DNA of 58,817 bases from Clostridiales bacterium (lineage in GTDB: Bacteria; Bacillota; Clostridia; Christensenellales; UBA1750), in assembly GCA_015056005.1 (NCBI GenBank), contig SVHB01000004.1, positions 1 through 58,817 on the forward strand, in the 5' to 3' direction. A program made the position numbers and the translations under genes. Shown here one piece after another: positions 10,417 through 58,817 of this stretch. The notes under the pieces were generated by a model. That model was not told where the DNA came from, made no database searches, and was given only the letters and a program-made list of their open reading frames with translations. Each line of letters begins with the position of its first letter. Positions within the stretch are counted from its first letter, which is position 1.

Positions 10417-11328
10417 ATGAATGATATTATGAAGGACAGGCTTTTTGAAAGTACGCTGATATACGAAAACACATACAGGATAACCAACTGCTTTGACAGC
10501 CATGAAAGGATGAATACTTTTTCGTATCTGATTATAGGCGATGAAAGAGCGATGCTGATCGACACCATGTTCGGGTACGGAAATATCAGGGAATATTGCC
10601 AAAAGCTGACCGATAAGCCCGTAATTCTTGTCTGCACCCACTATCACGGCGATCACACCGGCGGAAATTTCGATTTTGACGAGTATTATATGCACGCCGA
10701 CGATATACCGTTCATGAAGAGCGCCTTTGACAGGGCGATGAATGATACTGCGGCTTACCGTAATATGCGCCTTTCGCAGATGAAGAACGCCGTCTTGGAT
10801 GAATTTAAGGAAAAAGTCACCGCAAACGATTTTTCCATGCCCCACCCTATTTGCATCTGGCCGATATTTGACGGAGATGTTTTTGACCTTGGCAAAAGGC
10901 TGATAGAAGTCGTGCACGTCGGCGGTCATACCCCGGGCGAGATCGTTTTGATCGACGCGGAGAATAAGCCGGCGTTCACAGGCGATGCCTGCAATTCCAA
11001 CACACTTCTGCAGCTCCCGGGCTCGCTTAGCGTTGAGGAGTATAAAGAGTTTTTGGTAAAGCTGAAGGGAAAGCAAAGCCTGTTCGACCATTGCTACGGC
11101 GGTCATGAGGATTTTGATTCTTCCATAGTCGATGAAGGTATCGAGCTTGTGGACAGGGTGCTTTCGGGCACCGACGATAAGGAGAAATCGGAGAGCTTTG
11201 GCAGGACCTGCTTTTATGCCGCTTATCACAAAGAATCCGGCAGGGGCAGAAAGGACGGCAAGCGCTTCAACATGGCGTATCTGCCCGACAACATTTGGAA
11301 AAAGGAAAAACAGGGAAGAATACTGTAA
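10417..11328 (+). CDS. MBL-fold metallo-hydrolase
   Basis: HxHxDH motif (THYHGDHTGG). The ORF-track start at 10369 lies inside the upstream terminator, so I use ATG 10417. ATG 10429 is also possible. Confidence 0.8.
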   Translation: MNDIMKDRLFESTLIYENTYRITNCFDSHERMNTFSYLIIGDERAMLIDTMFGYGNIREYCQKLTDKPVILVCTHYHGDHTGGNFDFDEYYMHADDIPFMKSAFDRAMNDTAAYRNMRLSQMKNAVLDEFKEKVTANDFSMPHPICIWPIFDGDVFDLGKRLIEVVHVGGHTPGEIVLIDAENKPAFTGDACNSNTLLQLPGSLSVEEYKEFLVKLKGKQSLFDHCYGGHEDFDSSIVDEGIELVDRVLSGTDDKEKSESFGRTCFYAAYHKESGRGRKDGKRFNMAYLPDNIWKKEKQGRIL

Positions 11329-11330
11329 TG

Positions 11331-11370
11331 AAAAAAGAGCACGATCGTTTGATCGTGCTCCTTTGGTTTT
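11331..11370. terminator. bidirectional terminator between convergent genes
   Basis: GAGCACGATC-GTTT-GATCGTGCTC (11338-11361), with an A-run on the left and T-rich sequence on the right. Confidence 0.7.
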
Positions 11371-11371
11371 A

Positions 11372-12943
11372 TCAGTCGTCGCGTTCCTTTTCAAAATCGT
11401 AAACTGCGCCGGTCAGAGCGTCGACGTCGCAGCTGTATTCATAACCTCCGGACTTGAACTCTATCTCGTATACCTGCCTTCCGTCGTCCCTGTCGAGCTC
11501 GCACTCAACTCTGCCTGCCTCGGATGCATCGATACCGGCCTTTTTGAATGCTGAATCAAGCGCTTCCTCGCGGGAGATAAAGGCCGTGACGGGCTTTTCT
11601 GTCTCTTGAGCGGAAGGTGCCGGTGATCCGGGCTCTGTCGTCTTATGCGTGTTCGAATTGGGCACGGCTGTGGCCTGAGGTATAATATAGTCTGCCCTTT
11701 CGTGGGAGTACTTATAGACCTTGCCCGTGACCGCATCGATCTCGTATTCGTATTCCAGATGATCTTCTGTTATGAACTCGATATCGTATTCCAATCTTCC
11801 GTCATCGTGGTCGAGCTTGCATTTTGTAAAAGTGACCTGATCGGCTTTAAGTCCTGCGTGATCGATAACGACGGCTTTTGCTTCATCTGAAGTGAGCTTA
11901 GCATCGCTGATTGTATTTCCTTGGATGTAATTCTCCTCGTCCTTAGTCTGAACGGGTTGTACATAATCATCGTCGTACTCTCTGCGGGAGTTTATGACCT
12001 CGCCGGTTTTCGCGTCTATATCGTAATCATATTCATATTCGTTGTACCCGAACTCGACCTCGTATACCATTATGCCTTTTTCCAGATCCAGTTCGGCTTT
12101 GCTGTAGCGGATTTCAACGTTGATGCCCGCATGTGTCAAAGCAGCGTTTATCGCTGCGTCCCTGCCGATATAGGATTTATCGCTGGCGGTCCCCACGGAT
12201 TCGACTCCGTCCAGCCCGCTGCCCAGCAAATTCAGCTGATTGATGGAGAGCTGAGAAAGGTCTTTTTCGTCAAGCGCAGTGTTCTGCTTTGTCATCTGCG
12301 ATATAAGCTGGGCCTTGCCAAGGGATATATCGTACTGTTTTGCAAGGGTCTGCGTGTTTTCGTTATCTTTTATGGTCTGGCTGAGCACTGCTCCTGTGAA
12401 CGCATCCGTATCAAGCAGCTTGCTCACGTCTCCCGTGAGCTTCTCCTGCAGCTTGAGACCTCGCTCAATATCGTCGTTATCGACCGATATAAGGATCGAG
12501 TTTGCGATCTCCGAGATATAGCCGTTTTTGAGCATGGAGCCTATAAGCGCATTTACTGCTGCATCAAGGTCGCTGCCTTTGAGCTCCATATCGCCTATAA
12601 CGGTTTGGGCTTCGATGTTCAGGGGCTTGACCGAAAGCACTCTTTCGTTTTTGTTGATCTCTATCTCAAGGCTTGGGTTCACCTCAAATGCGATAAGGCT
12701 GTCGACTGCGTTTTGGACATACAGCCTGTTTGCTCCCATCAGGCCCACTGCGCAGATGATGAGCGCTGCGGCGGCCGAGATAAGCCTTCTTGTGATGTTC
12801 CTTTTCTTTGGCGTAAAGCTTACGACGTTTTTGCTGCCCTGAGCAATATCGGTCATGATGGGGCCCAATTCGTCGGGCGCGGCGTTTTTGAACGCCTTTT
12901 TGACTTTTTTGTTTATCTGATCGTAGTTTTCGTTCCTTTTCAT
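11372..12943 (-). CDS. anti-sigma factor, single-pass membrane protein with three PepSY-like repeats
   Basis: TM helix LISAAAALIICAVGLMGA. Repeats YEYDYDIDAKTGEVI, EYEYEIDAVTGKVY and YEYSCDVDALTGAVY. Start set at the second ATG (12943), which follows a GGGGA SD. It begins 4 nt after the sigma gene stop. Confidence 0.7.
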   Translation of the reverse strand: MKRNENYDQINKKVKKAFKNAAPDELGPIMTDIAQGSKNVVSFTPKKRNITRRLISAAAALIICAVGLMGANRLYVQNAVDSLIAFEVNPSLEIEINKNERVLSVKPLNIEAQTVIGDMELKGSDLDAAVNALIGSMLKNGYISEIANSILISVDNDDIERGLKLQEKLTGDVSKLLDTDAFTGAVLSQTIKDNENTQTLAKQYDISLGKAQLISQMTKQNTALDEKDLSQLSINQLNLLGSGLDGVESVGTASDKSYIGRDAAINAALTHAGINVEIRYSKAELDLEKGIMVYEVEFGYNEYEYDYDIDAKTGEVINSRREYDDDYVQPVQTKDEENYIQGNTISDAKLTSDEAKAVVIDHAGLKADQVTFTKCKLDHDDGRLEYDIEFITEDHLEYEYEIDAVTGKVYKYSHERADYIIPQATAVPNSNTHKTTEPGSPAPSAQETEKPVTAFISREEALDSAFKKAGIDASEAGRVECELDRDDGRQVYEIEFKSGGYEYSCDVDALTGAVYDFEKERDD

Positions 12944-12947
12944 TTTT

Positions 12948-13496
12948 TCATCCCCTTTCAAGCATATCGCGCAGCTTTTTGAGGGCGCGATGGTATTTGG
13001 AAAGCACTGTGGGCAGCGGCAGGTCCAGCATGCTCGCTATCTCCCTGTGCTTAAAGCCCGCGCTTGCGTGCAGTATCACTATCTCACGCTCTTGGTCGGT
13101 GAGCTTTTCCATGCAGAGCCTGATGATCGCCTCGTCCTGAGGCGTGACGGAATTGTTGCTCTCGATATAGTCTAACCAATCCTCAAAAGGCTCAGCCGTC
13201 TTTTTTCTTTCCCTTAGCTTCATCAGGCAAAGGTTTCGGGCGATAGCCATTATGTACGCCATGGGTCTTTTTTGCGCTTTGTATGAGGCAGCGGCACAGT
13301 GCAGGTTTACATATGTGTCGTGCAGTACGTCCTGTGCATCGTGTGCGTTTTTCAGCATTGAAAGTGCGAGCGCATACACCGCGCCGTGCGTTATTTCGTA
13401 AATATCTGCGATCGCCTGCATATCACCCTGCCGAAGCTCTTCCATCAGGCTTTCCAGCTTGTCAATGCTTTCGTATGTTAATGTCAAGAAAATCAT
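12948..13496 (-). CDS. ECF-type RNA polymerase sigma-70 family factor
   Basis: Region 2 (DVLHDTYVNL) and region 4 HTH (HREIASMLDLPLPTVLSKYHRALKKL). Start moved to ATG 13496, which follows the SD GGAAACGAAGG. Confidence 0.85.
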   Translation of the reverse strand: MIFLTLTYESIDKLESLMEELRQGDMQAIADIYEITHGAVYALALSMLKNAHDAQDVLHDTYVNLHCAAASYKAQKRPMAYIMAIARNLCLMKLRERKKTAEPFEDWLDYIESNNSVTPQDEAIIRLCMEKLTDQEREIVILHASAGFKHREIASMLDLPLPTVLSKYHRALKKLRDMLERG

Positions 13497-13565
13497 AGGC
13501 CTTCGTTTCCTTTCATAGAATAAATGCACGAACACACCGTTTTATTGCGCGAGGGGGAATATTTT

Positions 13566-14106
13566 TTATGCTTTTTTTGGGAGAAGGCTTTGCCTTCTCC
13601 CAAACCCATCAGCTATCAGGGGGGGATGTTCGAGATGGCTGCGCCCTCTCGAGCTCTGGGCCCAGAGGATTGCATCCTCTGGACTCCGCGGCTGTTTGGT
13701 TGAGTAATTGAATACGTTGGCTTACGCGTTGCCCGTAAAGTGTGGGCAACGCGTGATTGCTTTTAAGGACGGTTATGCGATGGAGGTTTGGACAGCCCAT
13801 CGTCCGTTTCTGTTTTGCGAGAGCAAATTCTAACAGGGTCAGAGTATTTTGCGTGCGCGGATTATGGGTATGTGAAATTTATGACGGCTGGAGAATTGGT
13901 TGGTTTAAAAAGAAGGAAAAGTCGTTTCGCGCACATATCGCACGCCGAAGGCGCATATCGCTCACCGAAGGGGAATATCGCTGCCCGAAGGGGAATATCG
14001 CTGCCCGAAGGGGAATATCGCTGCCCGAAGGGGAATATCGCTGCCCGAAGGGCAATATCGCTTCCGCGCAAGCGGAAATATCGCTGCACTGTAAGTGCAA
14101 TAATGC
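13566..14106 (+). repeat. mosaic hairpin element, locus R1 (one arm plus array cargo; boundaries approximate)
   Basis: hp1a GGGAGAAGGC/GCCTTCTCCC at 13579-13601. hp1b TCGAGA..TCTCGA at 13630-13652. pal2 CCAGAGGAT-TGC-ATCCTCTGG at 13662-13682. CCGCGGC box. hp3 GCGTTGCCC-GTAAAGTGT-GGGCAACGC at 13726-13752. GTATTTTGCGTGCGCGG box near 13843. ATATCGC-hairpin array at 13935-14106. Confidence 0.85.
13966..14065 (+). repeat. 20-nt tandem repeat inside R1
   Basis: CGAAGGGGAATATCGCTGCC occurs four times without change (13966-14045), followed by one diverged unit. Confidence 0.95.
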
Positions 14107-14111
14107 TTATC

Positions 14112-14138
14112 AAAAAAGGCGCTGCAAAACAGCGCCTT
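14112..14138 (-). terminator. rho-independent terminator of trpB
   Basis: AAGGCGCTG / CAGCGCCTT stem. On the minus strand it is followed by TTTTTT. Confidence 0.8.
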
Positions 14139-14150
14139 AAATATTTGGAA

Positions 14151-15371
14151 TTACCTCAGACCGAAGTTTTCAAGAACGTAGTCCATGTCCTTGTCGCCTC
14201 TGCCGGAGAGGTTGATGAGCACGGAGCCGTGTTCCATTTCCTTGGCAAGCTTCATGCCGTATGCGACTGCGTGAGAGCTCTCGATGGCGGGAATGATGCC
14301 CTCGAGCCTTGAGAGCTTGAAGAATGCGTCGATGGAATCGTTGTCGTCGATAACGTCGTACTTGACTCTGCCGATCTCCTGCAGGAAAGCATGCTCGGGA
14401 CCGGAGGAGGGATAATCAAGACCGGAAGCTACGGAATAAACGGGAGCGGGATCGCCGTTTTCGTCCTTGAGCATGATGGAATTGAAGCCGTGCATGATGC
14501 CCTCGGTGCCGTATTTGAGGGAGGCTGCGTGGTCGCCCAGCTTGGGACCGCGGCCGAGAGGTTCAATGCCGTAGATGTCAACGGGATCGTTCAGGAATCC
14601 TGCAAACAGACCCGCTGCGTTGGAGCCGCCGCCCACGCAGGCAACTATGGCGCTGGGCAGATGACCGGTCATATCGATGAACTGCTCCCTTGCTTCGATG
14701 CCGACAACGCTCTGGAAATCTCTTACCATCATGGGGAAGGGATGAGGACCAAGCACGGAGCCGATGCAGTAAATAGCGTCGTTGTATTCCTTGCTGTATG
14801 CGTCAAAAGCAGCGTCAACAGCTTCCTTGAGGGTCTTAAGGCCATGAGTTACCTCGACCACGTTTGCGCCGAGGATCTTCATCCTTGCAACATTGGGAGC
14901 CTGCTTTTTGATATCGACAGAGCCCATGTAAATATCGCATTCAAGGCCGAAATATGCAGCAGCGGTGGCAAGAGCTACGCCATGCTGACCTGCGCCGGTC
15001 TCTGCGATGACCTTCTTTTTGCCCATGTATTTTGCCAGCAGCGCTTCGCCCATGCAGTGGTTGAGCTTGTGCGCGCCGGAATGGTTCAGATCTTCGCGCT
15101 TGGCGTAAAGCTGTACCCTGCCGCCCAAAGCGTCGGAAAGCCTTTCCAGATGGGTAACGGGAGTGGGTCTGCCCTGGAATTCCTTCCTGATCCTTCTGAG
15201 CTCGGCGATGAACTTTCTGGACTGAGCGATGGAATAATATGCCTGAGTGATCTCTGCCATTGCAGCCTTGAGCTTGTCGTCAACGTATACGCCGCCGTAC
15301 TTGCCGAAGAAACCGTTTTTATCGGGATAATTGTTGAAATAAGTATCGAAATCTACGTTGTTGAACTTCAT
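14151..15371 (-). CDS. trpB: tryptophan synthase beta chain (stand-alone)
   Basis: 406 aa. FGKYGGVYV, the PLP-lysine motif HSGAHKLN, and GGGSNAAG. No trpA or other trp genes in the window. Confidence 0.9.
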
Positions 15372-15750
15372 TTTGTCTTCCTCCGAATGTGTTTTTGTCT
15401 TGCTTGGCGATGCTTTGATTCAATTTCGCCATCGCTTGGTCAAAAGTGCCATGTCTTCCTCCGAAAATAAAAAATCCCCGGCAGAGAATCCTTTGTTCTC
15501 TGTCAAGGACGAAACTTCTTTCGTGGTGCCACCTTGTTTACGGCAATAGCCGCGCTCTTTGATAGGATACCATCATATCCCCCGCAATTAACGTATGCGC
15601 TCACGTCGCAGAATACTCTGTAAATATTACATTTGACTGCGCCCTCGGCGGTCCATTTGATGACCTGTTTTTCGCCCGCTCTCAGCTAATCGGACTCTCT
15701 GTGGAAGCATGATCACCGTTATCTCCGCGTCAACGGTTTTCTGTTGAGTT
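15372..15750 (-). promoter_or_regulatory. T-box leader (tRNA-Trp-responsive candidate) controlling trpB
   Basis: The minus strand carries AGAGAG and the T-box sequence AAACAAGGTGGCACCACG (15522-15539). A terminator hairpin CAGAGAA/TTCTCTG follows, then GGGGATTTTTTATTTT. Candidate specifier UGG-A at 15653-15655. Confidence 0.8.
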
Positions 15751-15805: not shown

Positions 15806-16366
15806 GGGGATGGGGAGACGTTTTTTGAGGAAGGGCTTTCAGCCCTCCCTCAAACTCCCTCCCGACCAAGGGATTGCATCCCTTGGAACCCGCGGCATTT
15901 TGGGATCAGGAATGTTATGCTTTTGCGTCGACGTGGCCGTAAAGGGTGGCCACGTCGAAAATAGCAAAGCGCTTATTCAAAAAGGGTCGGAGTATTTGAC
16001 CCAAAGCCTAACTCTCCTAAAAATAAATCATGCGTGACCCACGAGGCGGTCGTGCGGAGCGCGACCGCCAATGATATACGCCTTGCGGCGTGTGATGAAT
16101 GATATATTCCTGCGGAATATGATATATGCGCTGCGCGCACATGATGGTTAGTAACCACCCAACCGTCTAACTCTCCTAAAAATAATTCACGAGTGGCCCA
16201 TACCTGCCGGGCCACTCGTAAGCTGAAGTATGAAATTCCTCAATCCAAAAGCTGCGGGATCCAAGGGATGCAATCCCTTGGTGGATGAGGGTTTGGGAGA
16301 AGGCGAAGCCTTCTTCCAAGAAAGAGAGCTCGAGAGGGCGCAGCCATCTCGAACGTACCCCCAAAA
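15806..16366. repeat. mosaic hairpin element, locus R2 (composite of a forward partial copy and reverse copies)
   Basis: Forward arm: hp1 15827-15851, pal2 15866-15886, hp3 15930-15956. Reverse arm: hp3 16191-16217, pal2 16261-16281, hp1a 16295-16317, hp1b 16330-16352. ATGATAT-variant hairpin array at 16071-16146. A truncated hp3 half lies at 16032-16040. Confidence 0.85.
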
Positions 16367-16367
16367 C

Positions 16368-17651
16368 CTACTTAATGCAGTCCTTGCCGCCCATGTACAT
16401 CCTGAGGGGCTCGGGGATAGCTACGGTACCGTCTGCGCGCAGGTTATTTTCGAGGAACGCGATGAGCATTCTGGGGGGAGCTACGACGGTGTTATTGAGG
16501 GTGTGGGGGAAGTAATTGCCCTTCTGCTTGCCGCCCTTTACGCGGATGCCGAGCCTGCGTGCCTGAGCGTCGCCGAGGTTGGAGCAGGAACCGACTTCGA
16601 AATATTTTTGCTGACGGGGAGACCAAGCCTCAACGTCGACGCTCTTGACCTTGAGATCGGCGAGGTCGCCGGAGCAGCACTCGAGGGTGCGTACGGGGAT
16701 ATCGAGGGAGCGGAAGAAATCGACGGTGTTGGTGTAGAGCTTCTTGAACCATTCCATGGAATCCTCGGGCTCGCAAACAACGATCATTTCCTGCTTTTCG
16801 AACTGATGGATGCGGTAAACGCCGCGCTCCTCGATGCCGTGCGCGCCGACTTCCTTGCGGAAGCAGGGGGAATAGCTGGTCAGAGTCTGGGGGAGCTGGG
16901 CGGGGTCGAGCATGGTGTTGATGAACTTACCGATCATGGAATGCTCGGAAGTACCGATAAGGTAAAGATCCTCGCCTTCGATCTTGTACATCATGTTTTC
17001 CATCTCGGTAAAGCTCATAACGCCGGTTACGACTTCGCTTCTGATCATGAAGGGGGGCACATAATAGGTGAAGCCCCTGTCGATCATGAAATCACGGGCA
17101 TAGGAAAGGATAGCGGAATGCAGCCTTGCGATATCGCCGGAAAGATAGTAGAAACCGTTGCCGGAGGTGCGCCTTGCGCTGTCCAGATCGATGCCGGAGA
17201 ACTTTTCCATGATATCAACGTGATAGGGAACCTCGAAATCGGGAACGACGGGCTCGCCGTAGCGCTCAACTTCCACGTTTTCGGAATCGTCCTTGCCGAT
17301 CGGAACGGAATCATCGATGATGTTGGGGATGACCAGCATGCGCTTTTTGATCTCGGCTTCGTATTCGGTCTCCTTGACCTCAAGGTCAGCAAGCTCCTTT
17401 GCCATTGCGGCGACTTCGGCCTTTGCCTTTTCGGCCTCGTCCTTTAAGCCCTTTGCCATAAAGCCGCCGATCTGCTTGCTGATAACATTGCGCTGGTTCC
17501 TCAGCTCATCGCATCTGGTGCGGGCTGCGCGGTATTTCTGGTCAAGGTCGATGACCTCGTCTACCAGAACCAGCTTGTGATCCTGGAACTTTTTCTTGAT
17601 GTTCTCTTTTACAAGATCGGGATTGGTACGGATAAGCTTGATGTCTAACAT
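16368..17651 (-). CDS. serS: seryl-tRNA synthetase
   Basis: The protein from MLDIKLIRTNPDLVKENI has a class II aaRS core (FRKE, GSCSN). The 51-codon N-terminal extension in the ORF track runs through the T-box leader, so I trimmed it. The start coordinate is good to +/- 1 nt. Confidence 0.95.
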   Translation of the reverse strand: MLDIKLIRTNPDLVKENIKKKFQDHKLVLVDEVIDLDQKYRAARTRCDELRNQRNVISKQIGGFMAKGLKDEAEKAKAEVAAMAKELADLEVKETEYEAEIKKRMLVIPNIIDDSVPIGKDDSENVEVERYGEPVVPDFEVPYHVDIMEKFSGIDLDSARRTSGNGFYYLSGDIARLHSAILSYARDFMIDRGFTYYVPPFMIRSEVVTGVMSFTEMENMMYKIEGEDLYLIGTSEHSMIGKFINTMLDPAQLPQTLTSYSPCFRKEVGAHGIEERGVYRIHQFEKQEMIVVCEPEDSMEWFKKLYTNTVDFFRSLDIPVRTLECCSGDLADLKVKSVDVEAWSPRQQKYFEVGSCSNLGDAQARRLGIRVKGGKQKGNYFPHTLNNTVVAPPRMLIAFLENNLRADGTVAIPEPLRMYMGGKDCIK

Positions 17652-21165: not shown

Positions 21166-21862
21166 TCTCCTTTTTTGGGGGGGAGTACGTTCGAGAGGTT
21201 TCACCTCTCGAGCTCTCTGACCAAGGGTTTGCAACCCTTGGATCCCGCGGCTTTTTTATGAGTAATTGAATACGTTGGCTTACGCGTTGCCCGTAAAGTA
21301 TGGGCAACGCGTGATTTGTTTTTAGGAAGGTTATGCGGTAGAGATTTGGACGGTCAAGCGATCGCTTCTATTGTTTGTTTGAGGATGCTCATTATAAAGG
21401 CTCTCTCTTGAGGGGGTGACGCGTTAAGCAAACAGTCCGGTGGACTGTTTGCAGCCAAAGTCCGACGCGGGCTTGTTCCGCGGCGCGTCGCTGGCACGGG
21501 AACCGTGACTGATGAGGTGTCCCCCGCGTGCGCTTTTTCTTGGCATGCAGAAAAACGAACGTTATAGCGATATACTCGCTTCGCTCGTGCGATATGCGCC
21601 TTGCGGCGCGCGATATGTGCGCGAGAGGGCTTCTTTCCCTTGTTCAACTAACCGATTCTTCATCCGTCATAAATCTTACGAACGAATAATCCGCGCACAC
21701 AAAATACTTGTCTGTCGCATAAACTTCCACTATCGCATTTGCCGCGCACTTTCGCATAACATCCCGCAATCTCAAAAGCTGCGGGATCCAAGGGTTGCAA
21801 ACCCTTGGGCCCAGAGCTCGAGAGGGCGCAGCCATCTCGAACGTTCCTCCCCCACCGTCCTC
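21166..21862. repeat. mosaic hairpin element, locus R3 (inverted arms, composite cargo)
   Basis: Left arm: hp1 TCGAGAGG/CCTCTCGA 21191-21211, pal2 21221-21241, hp3 21284-21310. Cargo hairpins at 21428-21452, 21463-21490 and 21495-21507, followed by ACTGATGAGGTGTCCCCC at 21508-21525. Reverse ATATCGC array at 21567-21616. Right arm: pal2 21788-21808 and hp1b 21818-21840, with no hp3. Confidence 0.85.
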
Positions 21863-36808: not shown

Positions 36809-36896
36809 AATGCGGAGGTATATTCGCGTTGCGGGTTCAATGAACCCAAATCCGTTCCCCAAGAACTAACTTAATTGAAAAAGAGACTTGATTTAG

Positions 36897-37065
36897 GTGA
36901 AATATCCTTTGGATGTGAAATAATGACCTGCGGTCATTGTGAAATTTGATGCTTTGCATCAAGTGAAATGAAATAAATCCGCTCACGCCCGCATGCATTT
37001 CACACGCCGCAGGCGTATTTCACGCACGAAGTGCATTTCACAAATCCCGCAAGGGATTTATTTCG
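36897..37065. repeat. solo array of six small hairpins separated by GTGAAAT (left half) or ATTTCAC (right half)
   Basis: 7-mers at 36897, 36915, 36939 and 36963 (GTGAAAT) and at 36997, 37017 and 37035 (ATTTCAC). Hairpins at 36904-36914, 36922-36938, 36946-36962, 37004-37016, 37024-37034 and 37042-37059. Confidence 0.85.
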
Positions 37066-37068
37066 TTG

Positions 37069-37112
37069 AAAAGAAAAACCTTTTGCCCGATGGACAAAAG
37101 GTTTTTCTTTTC
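37069..37112. terminator. bidirectional rho-independent terminator (tRNA-Asn and XRE transcripts)
   Basis: 15-bp stem AAGAAAAACCTTTTG / CAAAAGGTTTTTCTT (37071-37109), T-rich on both strands. Confidence 0.8.
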
Positions 37113-37187
<75 letters not shown>

Positions 37188-44291: not shown

Positions 44292-44337
44292 ATCAATACA
44301 CCTCCAAGAGATTTTATTCGCATGCGGTGATCGATAT

Positions 44338-44925
44338 GCTTTTTGTGGGGGTTTGTTTTTTGGGGAAGGGTTTCACCCTTCCCCAAACCCCATCTGACCA
44401 GAGGATTGCATCCTCTGGACTCCGCGGCATTTGGGATCAGGGAATTTAGGCTTTTGCGTCGACGTGGCCGTAAAGGGTGGCCACGTCGAGGATGGCTGAG
44501 TGCTTATTCAAACAGGGTCAAAGTATTTTGCGTGCGCGGATTCCTCGTTCGCGAAATTTATGACGGCTGAAGAATTGGTTACTCTGATAAGCCGCAAAAG
44601 CCCTCTCGCGCACATATCGCAGCCGAAGGCTATATCGCGCGCCGAAGGCGCATATCGCTGCGCCAAAGGCGCAATCTTTCCACGCCGGCATTGGCTGCCG
44701 CAGCATAACCCTCTTCCATATACCGCGAATCCCATCCCACTGCCTGACCCTCCTGAAAATAAATCACGAGGAACCCATACTTTACGGGTTCCTCGTAGGC
44801 TAACGTATAAAATTACTTGATCAAAAAGCCGCGGGATCCAAGGGTTGCAAACCCTTGGTCAGGTGGGTTTTAGGGAGGGCTGAAAGCCATCCCTAACGTC
44901 TCCCTAACGTCCCCCTCGTCTCCCC
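44338..44925. repeat. mosaic hairpin element, locus R4 (complete copy with both arms)
   Basis: Left arm: hp1 44362-44384, pal2 44398-44418, hp3 44461-44487. Cargo: GTATTTTGCGTGCGCGG box and ATATCGC array at 44614-44673. Right arm: hp3 44768-44794, pal2 44838-44858, hp1 44872-44894. Confidence 0.9.
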
Positions 44926-45675
44926 CTACTTGATCGGCAGCCACTTTAACACGTGGCGGATGTACTCATCCCAGAAATCCCAGTTATGGACGCCGGGACC
45001 TTCTTCGTAGGTGAGGTCGATCCTGTCCTTGAACCTGTCGCGGAAGGCGGTATTGGACAGATAGAGGAAATCCTCGGTGCCGCAGGCCTGATAGAACCTG
45101 GGCAGGGAAGCACCCTCGGCGATGAGCTTTTCAAGCTGAGCGATGATATCGTTCTCACTGCCGCGGGTGTTCTCGCCGAAAACGGAAAAGAACTCGGGGC
45201 TTGTATTGCGATCCATGATAGCTGCAACATCAACTGCACCGGAGAGGGACGCAACAGCGGCGAACTTGTCGTGGCAGAGCACGCCGAGCTTGAAAGCGCC
45301 GTAGCCGCCCATGGAAAGACCGGCAGCAAAGGTATCCTCGCGCTTAGTGGAGATCGGGAACATGGAAGCGCAGATGGCGGGAAGCTCCTTGCTCACGAAA
45401 TCAAAATACTTGTAGCCCGATACTGTGTTGGTATAGAATGCGCGGTGGGTGGTGGGCATAACGACGATGAGATCCTTGCCGTTTACGTATTCCTCTATCC
45501 TCGTCTTGCGATGCCATGCGCTCTGATCGTCGGAAAGGCCATGGAGCAAATAAAGCACAGGGTATTCTTTTCTTTCGGTCGGGGTGGGGTACTGCGCCTT
45601 TTCGGGGATGATGACGTCCATGCCCATAGCGAGCTGCAGCGCCTGAGAACGGAAATTCACATGAAGTAATGCCAT
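44926..45675 (-). CDS. esterase-family alpha/beta hydrolase (esterase D / S-formylglutathione hydrolase-like)
   Basis: 249 aa. Nucleophile elbow GLSMGGYGA. Confidence 0.85.
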   Translation of the reverse strand: MALLHVNFRSQALQLAMGMDVIIPEKAQYPTPTERKEYPVLYLLHGLSDDQSAWHRKTRIEEYVNGKDLIVVMPTTHRAFYTNTVSGYKYFDFVSKELPAICASMFPISTKREDTFAAGLSMGGYGAFKLGVLCHDKFAAVASLSGAVDVAAIMDRNTSPEFFSVFGENTRGSENDIIAQLEKLIAEGASLPRFYQACGTEDFLYLSNTAFRDRFKDRIDLTYEEGPGVHNWDFWDEYIRHVLKWLPIK

Positions 45676-54361: not shown

Positions 54362-54950
54362 GAGGACGGGGGGACGATTTTTGGAAGAAGGCGTTGCCTT
54401 CTCCCAAACCCTCATCCACCAAGGGTTTGCAACCCTTGGAACCCGCGGCATTGGGAATGTATAATTTCATACGATAGCTTACGAGGAACCCGTAAAGTAT
54501 GGGTTCCTCGTGATTGTTTTTTTGGTTGTTAAGCAATCGTTCTGTAATACAACAGCAAATAATTGTGTGGACACCTCATCAGTCACGCCAAGCGTGACAG
54601 CTTCCCCTCAAGGGGAAGCCAAGAAAACCTCGTACTCAAACATTTACGGTTATGTAGAGCTTGTAAGTCTGCAAACGTATGAAACAACTGATATATCTCG
54701 GCTTCTCCTAGAGGAGAAGCTGTCGCCTTTAGGCGACTGATGAGGTGTCACCGCTTTTTATTTGCTGTTGTATAGCAGAACGGCTGCATAACTCTCCTGA
54801 AAATAAATCACGCGTGACCCATACTTTACGGGTCACGCGTAAACAAACGTATTTAATTTCCGCAGCCAAAAGCCGCGGGATCCAAGGGATGCAATCCCTT
54901 GGTCAGGTGGGTCTTAGGGAGGGGTGAAACCCATCCCTAAAAACGTCTTC
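54362..54950. repeat. mosaic hairpin element, locus R5 (complete copy with a different cargo)
   Basis: Left arm: hp1 54383-54405, pal2 54419-54439, hp3 54483-54509. Cargo: nested palindromic multi-hairpin domain at 54540-54780. Right arm: hp3 54812-54838, pal2 54882-54902, hp1 54916-54938. Confidence 0.9.
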
Positions 54951-54955
54951 CTCTA

Positions 54956-56284
54956 TTAAGCCTCTCTGCGCTTTGCGGTGGCTACGAGGGCCAGACCTGC
55001 CATCATGAGGACGGCTGCTGCGTAGTAGTGAGCATCAACACCGGTCTTGGGGATGGAGTTGCCGGAGGAAGATCCGGGCAGGCTGCCGCCGGGAACGGTG
55101 TAGTTGGGGTAGCTGGGATAAGTGGGAACAGAAGGAACGACGGGAGCGGGGTTGGAAACATAACCGCCGGTGGTCACGAATGCAACGGGATCGCCGTAAA
55201 CATAGCCATTGCCTGCAATGCCGACTGCGCGGACATAGTAAGCGGTGCCGGGCTTGAGACCGGTGACCTTGAGAGCGTAAGCGCCGTTAGCGTCGCTGCC
55301 CCAGAGGGTATCGCCCCAGTTGCCGTTAGCCTTGCGAACCTGGAAACCTGCCTTGGAGATGCCGTTGGAGGCAAAGCCGTTCAGGGTCGCGTTGGCAGAG
55401 GAGATGTTGGTGGGGTTGTTGGTAATTACATAGCTGTAATAAGTGGTGGGATAGTTGGGCACATAACCGTAACCGGGGATGTAATAACCATAACCGGGCA
55501 CATAGTAATAACCGTTGTAGTAATAGCCGTTACCGGGAACAACAACACCGGGAATAATGGTTTCGGGCTTCTCGTCGATTTGATCCTGAGTGATGGTGAA
55601 GGATCCGGTTGCGATCTGAGCGGGAGTTCTGCCATCAGAATAGTTGGCAATTGCCTTAAATTCATAGGTACCGGGGGTCATTTTACCAATGTTCATGGAA
55701 CCGGACCAAGTGTTTCCGCTCTTAGTGCCGGAAACGGAGTACATATTAAGACCGTTTACGGTATAGGTGAAAGTAACGCCGGTAATAGTAACAGGGTTAC
55801 CGTCCTTGACAGGAAGAGAGAAAGTGACCTTGCCGCCGCTTACAGAAGAAGAAACAGCACCGTCAACGGTAGGATCCTGACCATAGGCAACCTTGGTAGT
55901 AGCAGAGACTACAGAGTCATCAATGATGACGTTTCCACCAACACTGCACAGGCTCTTGAAGTAGTAAGTGGTATCAGCAGAAAGAGAAGAGATAGTTGCG
56001 CTGACAGTGCCGCCCGTTAAAGGATTGGAAGTATCTGCAGTAGCAATTCTAAATCCGGTTATACTGGACATATCGGGGGTGGTGCTATAGTAAACACTGA
56101 TAAATTCAACAGTCTCAGATGCTCCTACAGTGTACGGAACGCTGATGGTAGCGCTGGTATCTGTTACATTGGTAATAGAAGGAGCGCTGGTAGATGAAGT
56201 TGCCTGAGCCATCGCCGTAGCCGGGGCCATGAGGCAAAGGAGCATTGCAACAAGAGTGATGAGTGAAACAAAACGTTTGCTCAT
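54956..56284 (-). CDS. cell-wall-anchored surface protein with Fn3-like domains and an (I)PKTG sorting signal
   Basis: Signal peptide ...APATAMAQA. Two Fn3-like segments. Tyr/Gly-rich linker. C-terminal IPKTG, then a hydrophobic helix, then KRREA. Confidence 0.8.
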   Translation of the reverse strand: MSKRFVSLITLVAMLLCLMAPATAMAQATSSTSAPSITNVTDTSATISVPYTVGASETVEFISVYYSTTPDMSSITGFRIATADTSNPLTGGTVSATISSLSADTTYYFKSLCSVGGNVIIDDSVVSATTKVAYGQDPTVDGAVSSSVSGGKVTFSLPVKDGNPVTITGVTFTYTVNGLNMYSVSGTKSGNTWSGSMNIGKMTPGTYEFKAIANYSDGRTPAQIATGSFTITQDQIDEKPETIIPGVVVPGNGYYYNGYYYVPGYGYYIPGYGYVPNYPTTYYSYVITNNPTNISSANATLNGFASNGISKAGFQVRKANGNWGDTLWGSDANGAYALKVTGLKPGTAYYVRAVGIAGNGYVYGDPVAFVTTGGYVSNPAPVVPSVPTYPSYPNYTVPGGSLPGSSSGNSIPKTGVDAHYYAAAVLMMAGLALVATAKRREA

Positions 56285-58621: not shown

Positions 58622-58641
58622 GTGAGTTTCCTTTATGTAAG

Positions 58642-58817
58642 TTTTTTTGGAAGAAGGCTTCGCCTTCTCCCAAGCCCTCATCCACCAGAGGATTGCATCC
58701 TCTGGACTCCGCGGCTTTGGGTTCAGGTGATTTTATACTTTTGCTTACGATGAACCCGTAAAGTATGGGTTCATCGTGATCGTCTTTGAGAACGATCAAA
58801 CTATTTACGTGCGCGTA
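58642..58817 (+). repeat. mosaic hairpin element, locus R6 (arm only; cut by the window end)
   Basis: hp1 58649-58671, pal2 58684-58704, hp3 GATGAACCC-GTAAAGTAT-GGGTTCATC 58749-58775. The last bases CTATTTACGTGCGCG begin the conserved GTATTTTGCGTGCGCGG box. Confidence 0.85.

Follow-up and report, generated by a model that had tools for sequence, protein, structure and literature searches.

The noncoding element at positions 44338-44925 (e44) of a 58,817-nt stretch of Clostridiales bacterium contig SVHB01000004.1, read on the forward strand and referred to below as the window, is best regarded, with a probability of roughly 0.55, as one copy of a lineage-restricted, non-autonomous family of modular intergenic repeats of the REP/BIME/MITE (miniature transposable element with inverted repeats) kind, the arms of which have been co-opted as gene 3' ends. 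In the approximately 70 kb of sequence of this species compared in all, DNA-level copying and exchange between loci were found for both whole elements and single modules. The arms, which are about 150 nt long, consist in order of a G-rich box, a hairpin hp1 (or its substitute hpX), the palindrome pal2 with the conserved GGAnyCCGCGGC, a linker and the hairpin hp3. The first-pass annotation had described e44 as a complete, noncoding, multicopy element with inverted structured arms around variable cargo; this description was confirmed, and all the coordinates assigned to e44 stood up when the sequence was read again, including those of hp1 (44362-44384) and hp3 (44461-44487) in the left arm. The covariance models used here (A2 and R1) were built from nine window arms. 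The parts of e44 are as follows:

44338-44361, + strand: outer T/G-rich leader of the left arm, a degenerate G-box (from the sequence, the tips of all the arms being compared)
44352-44506, + strand: left arm, "B-type" (hp3 without a T-tract); model R1, 145 bits, E = 5e-36; hp1 at 44359-44387, pal2 at 44398-44418, CCGCGGC at 44422-44428, hp3 at 44460-44489 with the loop GTAAAGG
44523-44613, + strand: "box" module, GTATTTTGCGTGCGCGG...CGCGCAC, sharing about 80% identity with 13843-13934 and, in inverted orientation, with 21625-21709
44614-44673, no strand assigned: array composed of three units of 20 nt, with ATATCGC and a short hairpin in each; Gut-1-like on the - strand
44674-44751, no strand assigned: spacer module separating the array from the right arm, homologous to positions 2010-2095 of contig L040
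44749-44904, - strand: right arm, "A-type"; model R1, 167.8 bits, E = 8e-42, and terminator scan; hp1 at 44870-44896, pal2 at 44838-44858, GCCGCGG at 44828-44834, hp3 at 44765-44797, tail TTTATTTT
44897-44928, - strand: G-box of the right arm, two to three tandem GGGGGACGTTA-like units, starting one base past the esterase stop codon TAG (44926-44928)

The left leader is preceded by TATG (44334-44337), and on the other side e44 is bordered by the stop codon of the esterase gene (44926..45675). The three hairpins of the left arm were reproduced by single-sequence folding, and the ends of the box are able to pair with each other (GTGCGCG with CGCGCAC). The two inverted arms are 69.7% identical over 122 nt (BLAST), and both ends of the element match the arm model. 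The claim that the mirrored arms carry the same modules holds in the case of their order, position and loops, but the stem sequences are not the same: the hp3 hairpins, for example, differ by compensatory changes (GACGTGGCC/GGCCACGTC versus CGAGGAACCC/GGGTTCCTCG). To judge from this comparison, the left and right arms are homologous modules and not identical repeats.

The elements of the family span 540-700 nt and are noncoding. Contrary to the wording of the first-pass annotation, which had seen no credible open reading frame (ORF) in e44, one does exist (44500..44820, 106 aa, GTG start), but it is indeed not credible, since it has no Shine-Dalgarno sequence and crosses the 20-nt-period array, in which the number of units varies among copies and strains; nor is this ORF conserved. 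Protein coding by e44 was therefore rejected. Public gene calls place "proteins" of 63-95 aa within the elements (L017 and L026; window positions 15825-16037 on the + strand, 21644-21835 on the - strand and 13853-14140 on the + strand), and similar spurious ORFs of 40-209 aa occur in protein collections (P0121-P0128). These are annotation artefacts, which serve as handles for locating copies.

Copies in the window and elsewhere in the species

The recurrence of these modules at six loci, as initially proposed, is borne out by the pal2 plus CCGCGGC pattern, which occurs at 10 sites, as compared with 0 expected from 100 shuffles: six on the + strand (13662, 15866, 21221, 44398, 54419, and 58685) and four on the - strand (16281, 21808, 44858, and 54902). 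The nine-arm covariance model finds the identical 10 sites with E values of 1e-14 to 1e-42 and no other match in the window, and the same network of direct and inverted matches was obtained when the six loci were compared with the window by BLAST. The six loci add up to 3152 nt, i.e., 5.4% of the window, in line with the earlier estimate of about 3.1 kb and 5%, and all of them are intergenic, as had been noted. Inverted pairs of arms are present in four of them (15806-16366, 21166-21862, 44338-44925, and 54362-54950), and the arm occurs singly at 13566-14106. The copies other than e44 are organized as follows:

13566-14106, + strand: one-armed copy with an extra hp1 unit (13577-13603), an arm (13621-13771), module D, a box (13843-13934) and a nine-unit array (13935-14106)
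15806-16366, no strand assigned: two-armed copy e15/16, with an arm at 15817-15975 (+), an array at 16069-16130 and an arm at 16172-16327 (-)
21166-21862, no strand assigned: two-armed copy e21, with an arm at 21182-21329 (+) in which hpX replaces hp1, and an arm without hp3 at 21724-21849 (-)
54362-54950, no strand assigned: two-armed copy e54, with arms at 54373-54528 (+) and 54793-54948 (-), located between the convergent uvrC and fn3-domain genes
58639-58817, + strand: arm (58639-58794) followed by the first part of an interior, truncated where the window ends

The whole of e54 forms a 583-nt imperfect palindrome with 69% identity. The interior of e15/16 holds a truncated fragment of a third arm (16006-16041), consisting of a T-tract and the 5' half of hp3, which is 92% identical to 54786-54821 and suggests, at the sequence level, either a nested insertion or recombination.

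Further contigs of the species were reached via a profile of the arm translations, which matches the spurious ORFs in protein collections. The check for copies beyond the window yielded eight further arms on four more contigs (three on L032, one on L033, three on L040, and one on L041), and at the density observed a complete genome would be predicted to hold several hundred arms. The whole architecture of e44 recurs at another locus, L040 1626-2262, with 82% identity and swapped modules, and the two-armed element itself is therefore a repeated unit. The public contigs encoding the window proteins are 97-100% identical to the window; they all carry elements, and many of them end inside arms, which is the behavior of repeats in assemblies.

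The genes flanking the elements in the window are ordinary chromosomal ones: those encoding an extracytoplasmic function (ECF) sigma factor and a pyridoxal phosphate (PLP)-dependent enzyme located behind a T-box, serS, trmK, and those of an aspartokinase and an esterase, uvrC, and an oxidoreductase gene. The T-box leader (15502-15742, - strand) scores 85.6 bits, the gathering score being 93, and lies upstream of the PLP-dependent enzyme gene (14151..15371). No transposase or recombinase was identified by Pfam in the elements or among the approximately 46 genes of the window.

Arm anatomy and covariation

The constant parts of the arm are the loops UUUCA (in most of the hp1 and hpX copies), UUGCA (pal2), and GUAAAGU (hp3), along with the linker GGAnyCCGCGGC. 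The hairpin hpX (CGAGAGG...CCTCTCG) either replaces hp1 or is stacked with it; the G-box consists of one to three tandem GGGGGACGTT-like units, and one window arm (21724-21849) lacks hp3. Among 16 distinct arms from the window and the other contigs of the species, 98.2% of the cells are paired across the 33 pairs of the three helices, and 18 of these pairs show double-sided changes. Shuffled and slid controls gave only 34-48% pairing and 1-4 double-sided pairs, and none of them reached the values of the arms. Whichever strand is folded, a single arm forms the three hairpins (z-scores -4.7 to -9.4). In folds of whole elements (z-scores -9.0 and -9.6), the left arm pairs with the right one. Since both strands fold equally well, folding alone says nothing about which strand matters. 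The variable pairs occupy a few discrete states, and G-U intermediates are almost absent.

This covariation raises the question as to whether the arms are functional structured RNA modules which have been selected as RNA, their repeat-like spread being secondary. They might in that case be 3'- or 5'-UTR (untranslated region) platforms to which a dedicated RNase or RNA-binding protein attaches, making up a post-transcriptional regulon, or they might be processed small RNAs. Apart from the very strong covariation and the invariant loops, the invariant sense-strand G-U pairs at both ends of hp3 also speak in favor of selection as RNA. The equal folding of the two strands speaks against it, however, and the scarcity of G-U intermediates, together with the fact that discrete stem variants are shuffled between loci and between strains, points to DNA-level exchange and not to gradual RNA compensation. 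In addition, about half of the arms have no co-oriented upstream gene or promoter and hence would not be transcribed in sense, and the arms remained below the threshold for every Rfam family. We consider a true RNA function of the arms to be a serious rival to the repeat interpretation, even if an unlikely one.

Two other possibilities suggested by the sequence were rejected. A pseudoknot between the pal2 loop and CCGCGGC, which was proposed on the basis of a linked variant (UUUCA plus CCUGAGAC in L016 and L032), is sterically unlikely and is confined to a single sub-lineage. Nor did the elements show any enrichment in six-base palindromes of the restriction-site type.

Gene ends, stop codons and terminators

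The first-pass annotation had overlooked two features: hp3 plus its T-tract makes an inward-reading terminator, and the arms abut stop codons. Ten arms are entered directly by a gene, and the G-box begins one base past the stop codon in all ten of them. The stop codons in contact with arms are TAG in eight cases, TAA-TAG in one and TAA in one; TGA was never found (0/10, as compared with 12/46 overall), and TAG ends about 3 of the 42 window genes located away from arms, the counts being small in all these comparisons and the categories of arms having been assigned by hand. The contacts are located at 16368, 44926, 54359, and 54954-54958 in the window, at 926-928, 2170-2172, and 2862-2864 in L032, at 522-524 in L033, and at 1623-1625 in L040. 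In e15/16, an hpX unit and a G-box extend beyond the - strand arm as far as the stop codon TAG of serS at 16368. As the SerRS protein is full length in comparison with its solved homologues, this arm is located at the natural end of the gene. An eleventh arm, a21R, lies behind the own terminator of the aspartokinase gene.

In seven of the nine window arms carrying hp3, this hairpin scored as an intrinsic terminator reading inward. It has the predicted stem-loop plus T-tract form in the right arm of e44 (44797-44765, tail ATTTATTTTC) and in six other window arms, whereas the terminator T-tract is missing in the left arm of e44 and in the arm at 15817-15975 (tails GAGGATGG and GAAAATAG). A run of at least four T residues follows hp3 in 8/8 gene-ending arms versus 5/10 others (p = 0.036), a difference which again involves small numbers and hand-assigned categories. 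The genes ended by arms have no other terminator. In the case of e44, the tail TTTATTTT of the right arm makes hp3 look like a terminator for the esterase gene. The T-tract behind hp3 and the direct contact with stop codons indicate that the arms have a putative role as gene 3' ends, and the stop-adjacent arms probably act as the transcription terminators of the genes in question. Both the closure of the unit by a terminator and the direct contact with stop codons would also be expected if the arms had been selected as RNA.

Where an arm faces a gene start, 15-70 nt separate it from the start codon, and the tips of such arms are more degenerate, often reading TATG; the arm at 58639, for example, begins 15-20 nt upstream of the oxidoreductase start codon (58621). 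A candidate outward promoter in the arm (TTTACG-19 nt-TATAAA) was discarded, since it has an overlong spacer, lacks conservation and was missed by the scan. The arm at 15806 is adjoined by a sequence resembling a strong promoter (TTGACA-17-TATTAT, 15785-15757).

Strain variation

At the 58642 locus, three strains that are 98-100% identical in their genes carry three different pal2 stems, with breakpoints between modules (window 58685-58800, L015 112-267, and L016 1-102). L015 (98.9% identical in genes) matches the window through hp1, after which pal2, hp3 and the whole interior differ. The sole difference in L016 (98.0%) is a 35-nt patch covering pal2 and CCGCGGC, and the variant that replaces it is also present in an arm of L032. 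In L029 and L030, there is a break precisely at the external end of the G-box (13614-13619), owing to either a deletion or a replacement: neither the ECF sigma gene nor the 5' portion of the gene for the RsgI-like anti-sigma factor is present (window 11310-13619 versus L029 2884-4293), and the remaining part of the latter gene is just 73% identical in this otherwise 97%-identical strain. The number of array units also differs between strains (8 versus 9). In the first 379 positions of L029, the interior of e15/16 (window position 16142) is joined to a stretch sharing 81.6% identity with a portion of the PLP-enzyme gene (14922-15289), which is due either to chimeric assembly or to a genuine rearrangement at the repeat.

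Patch-wise replacement between strains, along with the double-sided changes without intermediates and the fact that no transposase was found, might suggest that the elements are the passive product of local duplication and recombination, neither mobile nor functional, with palindromes kept perfect by template-switch repair. This explanation seems to us to be very improbable: the copies occupy many unlinked loci on at least five contigs, the loops and linkers are conserved while the stems vary, the arms are located exactly at stop codons, the T-tract is kept where an arm ends a gene, and the arms are conserved above the synonymous rate.

Interior modules

The cargo consists of swappable modules: the box, the 20-nt hairpin array and the modules formed by hairpins followed by CTGATGAGGTGTC. 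The box is also present in L032, L040, and L033, and its center has been replaced between strains. The last kind of module, a recurrent cargo in which two covarying hairpins precede CTGATGAGGTGTC(C), occurs at 54560-54770 and 21480-21525 in the window, as well as in L033 40-95, L041 50-100, and L015 1-60. An inverted pair of these modules makes up the interior of e54, while that of e21 contains one of them (about 21480-21525), an array (21566-21625), and an inverted box. The motif CTGATGAGGTGTC in these two interiors suggested a hammerhead ribozyme, which was rejected, since there was no Rfam match and the GAAA/stem III part is missing.

The three units of the ATATCGC-hairpin array previously reported in e44 are indeed present, but the description has to be corrected in that the array is a weak relative of the Rfam motif Gut-1 (RF01706, gathering score 50 bits). 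The e44 array scores 30.4 bits (44627-44697, - strand), i.e., below the gathering score, and the sister arrays reach 51 bits at 14010-14086 and about 45 bits (45.3) at 16069-16130. In view of these scores, the arrays are borderline relatives of Gut-1. On the Gut-1 strand, the array loops read C(UUCG)G, and this resemblance of the cargo to Gut-1 would fit a function of the element as RNA, but the Gut-1 strand is antisense to the adjacent arm, which does not. An inverted pair of hairpin arrays with the spacer GTGAAAT/ATTTCAC occurs at 36890-37070, with no arms nearby; its half at 36992-37068 (- strand) gives the highest Gut-1 score of the window, 76.6 bits, and the pair lies beside a tRNA gene (37116-37187, - strand) and its terminator.

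Distribution

Outside the species, no true copy was detected by scanning the GTDB species representatives with the pal2 pattern. The single match, in a Myxococcales metagenome-assembled genome (L001), was rejected by the arm model (5.5 bits). There were no matches in the JGI metagenome collection with the pal2 or hp3 pattern, or in IMG/VR with the arm pattern, and the array pattern retrieved only unrelated tandem repeats from IMG/VR. BLASTN searches with the whole 588-nt element yielded nothing in the PLSDB plasmids or the INPHARED phages. Among the peptide-search results, P0125/L039 is a chance match without an arm, and P0129 is an unrelated tandem-repeat ORF. The arm model detected no arm in 40 kb from the relatives L012 and L013, the UvrC proteins of which are 69% and 61% identical, respectively. 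In another relative (L042, UvrC 65% identical), inspection by eye showed that uvrC ends with TGA and an ordinary terminator (2129-2200), at the place occupied by an arm in the species studied here. The stem of this terminator (GGCTTCCC...GGAGAAGCC) has a composition like that of hp1 and the cargo hairpins, which may be a coincidence or may hint at the origin of the hairpins.

The arms match no Rfam family at threshold, in keeping with the previous failure to recognize the family. At permissive thresholds, just Clostridiales-2 (27 bits) and chance miRNA-type matches were obtained on the arms.

Proposed mechanism and mobility

In the light of these data, the feature recognized during the spread of the repeats would be the hairpins with constant loops, the stems being free to vary. 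Recognition would probably occur in the single-stranded form and would be due to a factor encoded elsewhere in the genome, which could be a Y1/HUH-type enzyme such as that acting on REP/REPIN elements, or a host protein. An HUH-type reader of single-strand hairpins is our preferred guess because the stems vary freely, the tips are unlike and no duplication is evident. In most of the arms, hp3 and its T-tract would then act as an intrinsic terminator, read from the outside to the inside, and an arm lying flush with a stop codon may have been co-opted as the 3' UTR and terminator of that gene.

Several points weigh against this interpretation. Target-site duplications are not seen consistently: both junctions carry the dinucleotide TA in e44, e54, and the second L032 element, three of the five copies with two arms, but one end of e15/16 and one end of e21 lack it. 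Every locus is occupied in the few strains available, at 97-100% identity, none of them offering an empty site, and neither an autonomous copy nor a candidate mobilizing enzyme was found among the window genes or in the GTDB and metagenome scans. Covariation as strong as that observed here is also expected of functional RNA, and the terminator or 3'-UTR role is deduced from the sequence only. No promoter was found for trmK and the oxidoreductase gene, which start 15-20 nt from an arm and would need transcription through it. Lastly, in the comparison between the window and L030, the arms differ at 6/523 positions, versus 15/407 for the third codon positions of the adjacent gene. This slower change in the arms than at synonymous sites is easier to reconcile with selection on a host function, or with homogenization, than with junk DNA, and it would also be expected of modules selected as RNA.

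The TA dinucleotides are relevant to another explanation, according to which the elements are classical MITEs moved by a TA-targeting DDE transposase, as in the case of IS630/Tc1-mariner. As the first base of the element is G, TAG would be recreated if it were inserted at the TA of a stop codon TAA or TAG, and only such neutral insertions would survive, which would account for the zero spacing, the excess of TAG and the absence of TGA. TA is present at the outer junction of most of the arms, and the empty site reconstructed for e54 is a plausible stop (uvrC ...GGG TAT TAA, overlapping that of the convergent gene). The site reconstructed for e44 would, however, fuse the esterase ORF with the next gene. 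Furthermore, a DDE transposase is expected to need a common terminal sequence, whereas the extreme tips of one and the same element are unlike (TGCTTTTTG versus GGGGGAGACG in e44), TA is missing from one end in two of the five two-armed copies, the ends facing gene starts read TAT and not TAG, arms also occur singly, and no related insertion sequence was found among the window genes. We therefore take this explanation to be improbable. The label "MITE-like" used at first is apt as regards the inverted arms, the noncoding nature and the lack of a transposase, but target-site duplications are not consistent, no empty site was found and the two arms of an element are independent copies of a structured module and not identical terminal repeats, and it is not established that these elements are MITEs in the strict sense. 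No longer direct repeat was found at the junctions. The comparison of filled and empty sites which had been recommended yielded no empty site, since all the loci examined were filled in a few strains of the same species; the only variation observed between strains is module replacement and one deletion ending at an arm tip.

A more far-reaching possibility, which we put forward as a speculation and regard as unlikely, is that the arm may be a self-spreading "gene-end cassette" composed of a stop codon TAG at the tip, a 3' UTR of three protein- or RNA-recognized hairpins and an intrinsic terminator. The constant loops would be read by a dedicated partner, and the cassette would replace the native 3' ends of housekeeping genes genome-wide, Gut-1 being a cargo and not a free-standing small RNA.

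Much work has been done on dense families of structured repeats in Proteobacteria (REP/REPIN) and a few pathogens, but little is known about them in gut Clostridia. Under the repeat interpretation, the unusually large and ornate unit, its clean covariation and its precise relation to stop codons and terminators make the present family a possible model for the process whereby selfish repeats become gene 3' ends, as well as a lead to a hairpin-recognizing enzyme. In addition, the orphan Gut-1 motif gains a genomic context, and the arm repeats explain why assemblies of this organism break every few kilobases. These elements also serve as a warning that an RNA gene is not proven by strong covariation alone.

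Comparison with known systems

The closest systems in kind are the REP/BIME/REPIN elements, followed by modular MITEs such as BOX and Correia. BIMEs consist of inverted doublets of palindromic units around variable spacers (PMC3337134), and many REPs are located near stop codons, from where they can influence translation and 3' ends (PMC12306157, citing Liang et al. 2015). The present family resembles the REP/BIME/REPIN elements of Proteobacteria, which are mobilized by RAYT, a Y1 HUH transposase, in that its units are extragenic and palindromic, with a conserved hairpin structure. It also shares with them the mosaic combinations of motifs, the high copy number, the vertical inheritance within a lineage, the lack of an evident target duplication, and the inverted doublets able to form a long hairpin, as in the four two-armed copies of the window. 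It differs from them in that the unit is about 150 nt long, with three different hairpins and conserved linkers instead of a single 20-40-nt palindrome, that the doublets measure 0.6 kb instead of about 0.1 kb, that the host is an uncultured, Clostridia-like Firmicute of the gut, and that no RAYT gene is present among the window genes.

The bacterial MITEs Correia/NEMIS in Neisseria and BOX and RUP in Streptococcus pneumoniae are co-transcribed with the neighboring genes and affect their 3' or 5' ends; BOX has a modular build in which the internal units vary in number, and Correia duplicates TA. Like the elements described here, they are noncoding, a few hundred bases long and intergenic, with inverted ends. 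The present elements, on the other hand, have no terminal sequence common to both tips and no proven target-site duplication, their arms are far longer, with covarying stems and stand-alone modules, and the plasmid and phage records searched contained nothing similar to them.

The attC sites of integrons are imperfect palindromes located directly past the stop codon of the preceding gene, the structure of which is conserved and which are recognized as folded single strands. The position directly after the stop codon and the preservation of structure over sequence are common to the arms and attC sites. The neighbors of the arms are housekeeping genes in both orientations, however, and not a one-way array of promoterless cassettes; there is no integrase among the window genes, each unit has three hairpins, and arms also face gene starts.

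The Rfam motif Clostridiales-2 (RF02937) also consists of two hairpins with a purine-rich linker, and its model aligns weakly, in antisense, with the part of the arm comprising pal2 and hp1. The arms are not members of this family, as the best arm score was 27.1 bits, versus a gathering score of 58.6 bits, and the conserved linker sequence was unmatched. The interior arrays resemble Gut-1 in that they combine a constant 7-nt spacer with a short hairpin carrying a UUCG-type loop, but the spacer reads GCGAUAU here and GUGAAAU in Gut-1, the arms form no part of Gut-1, and the far better Gut-1 copy at 36992-37068 has no arms. The features which set this family apart from the known kinds are the size and complexity of its unit, the built-in terminator, the zero spacing from TAG stop codons and the Gut-1-like cargo.

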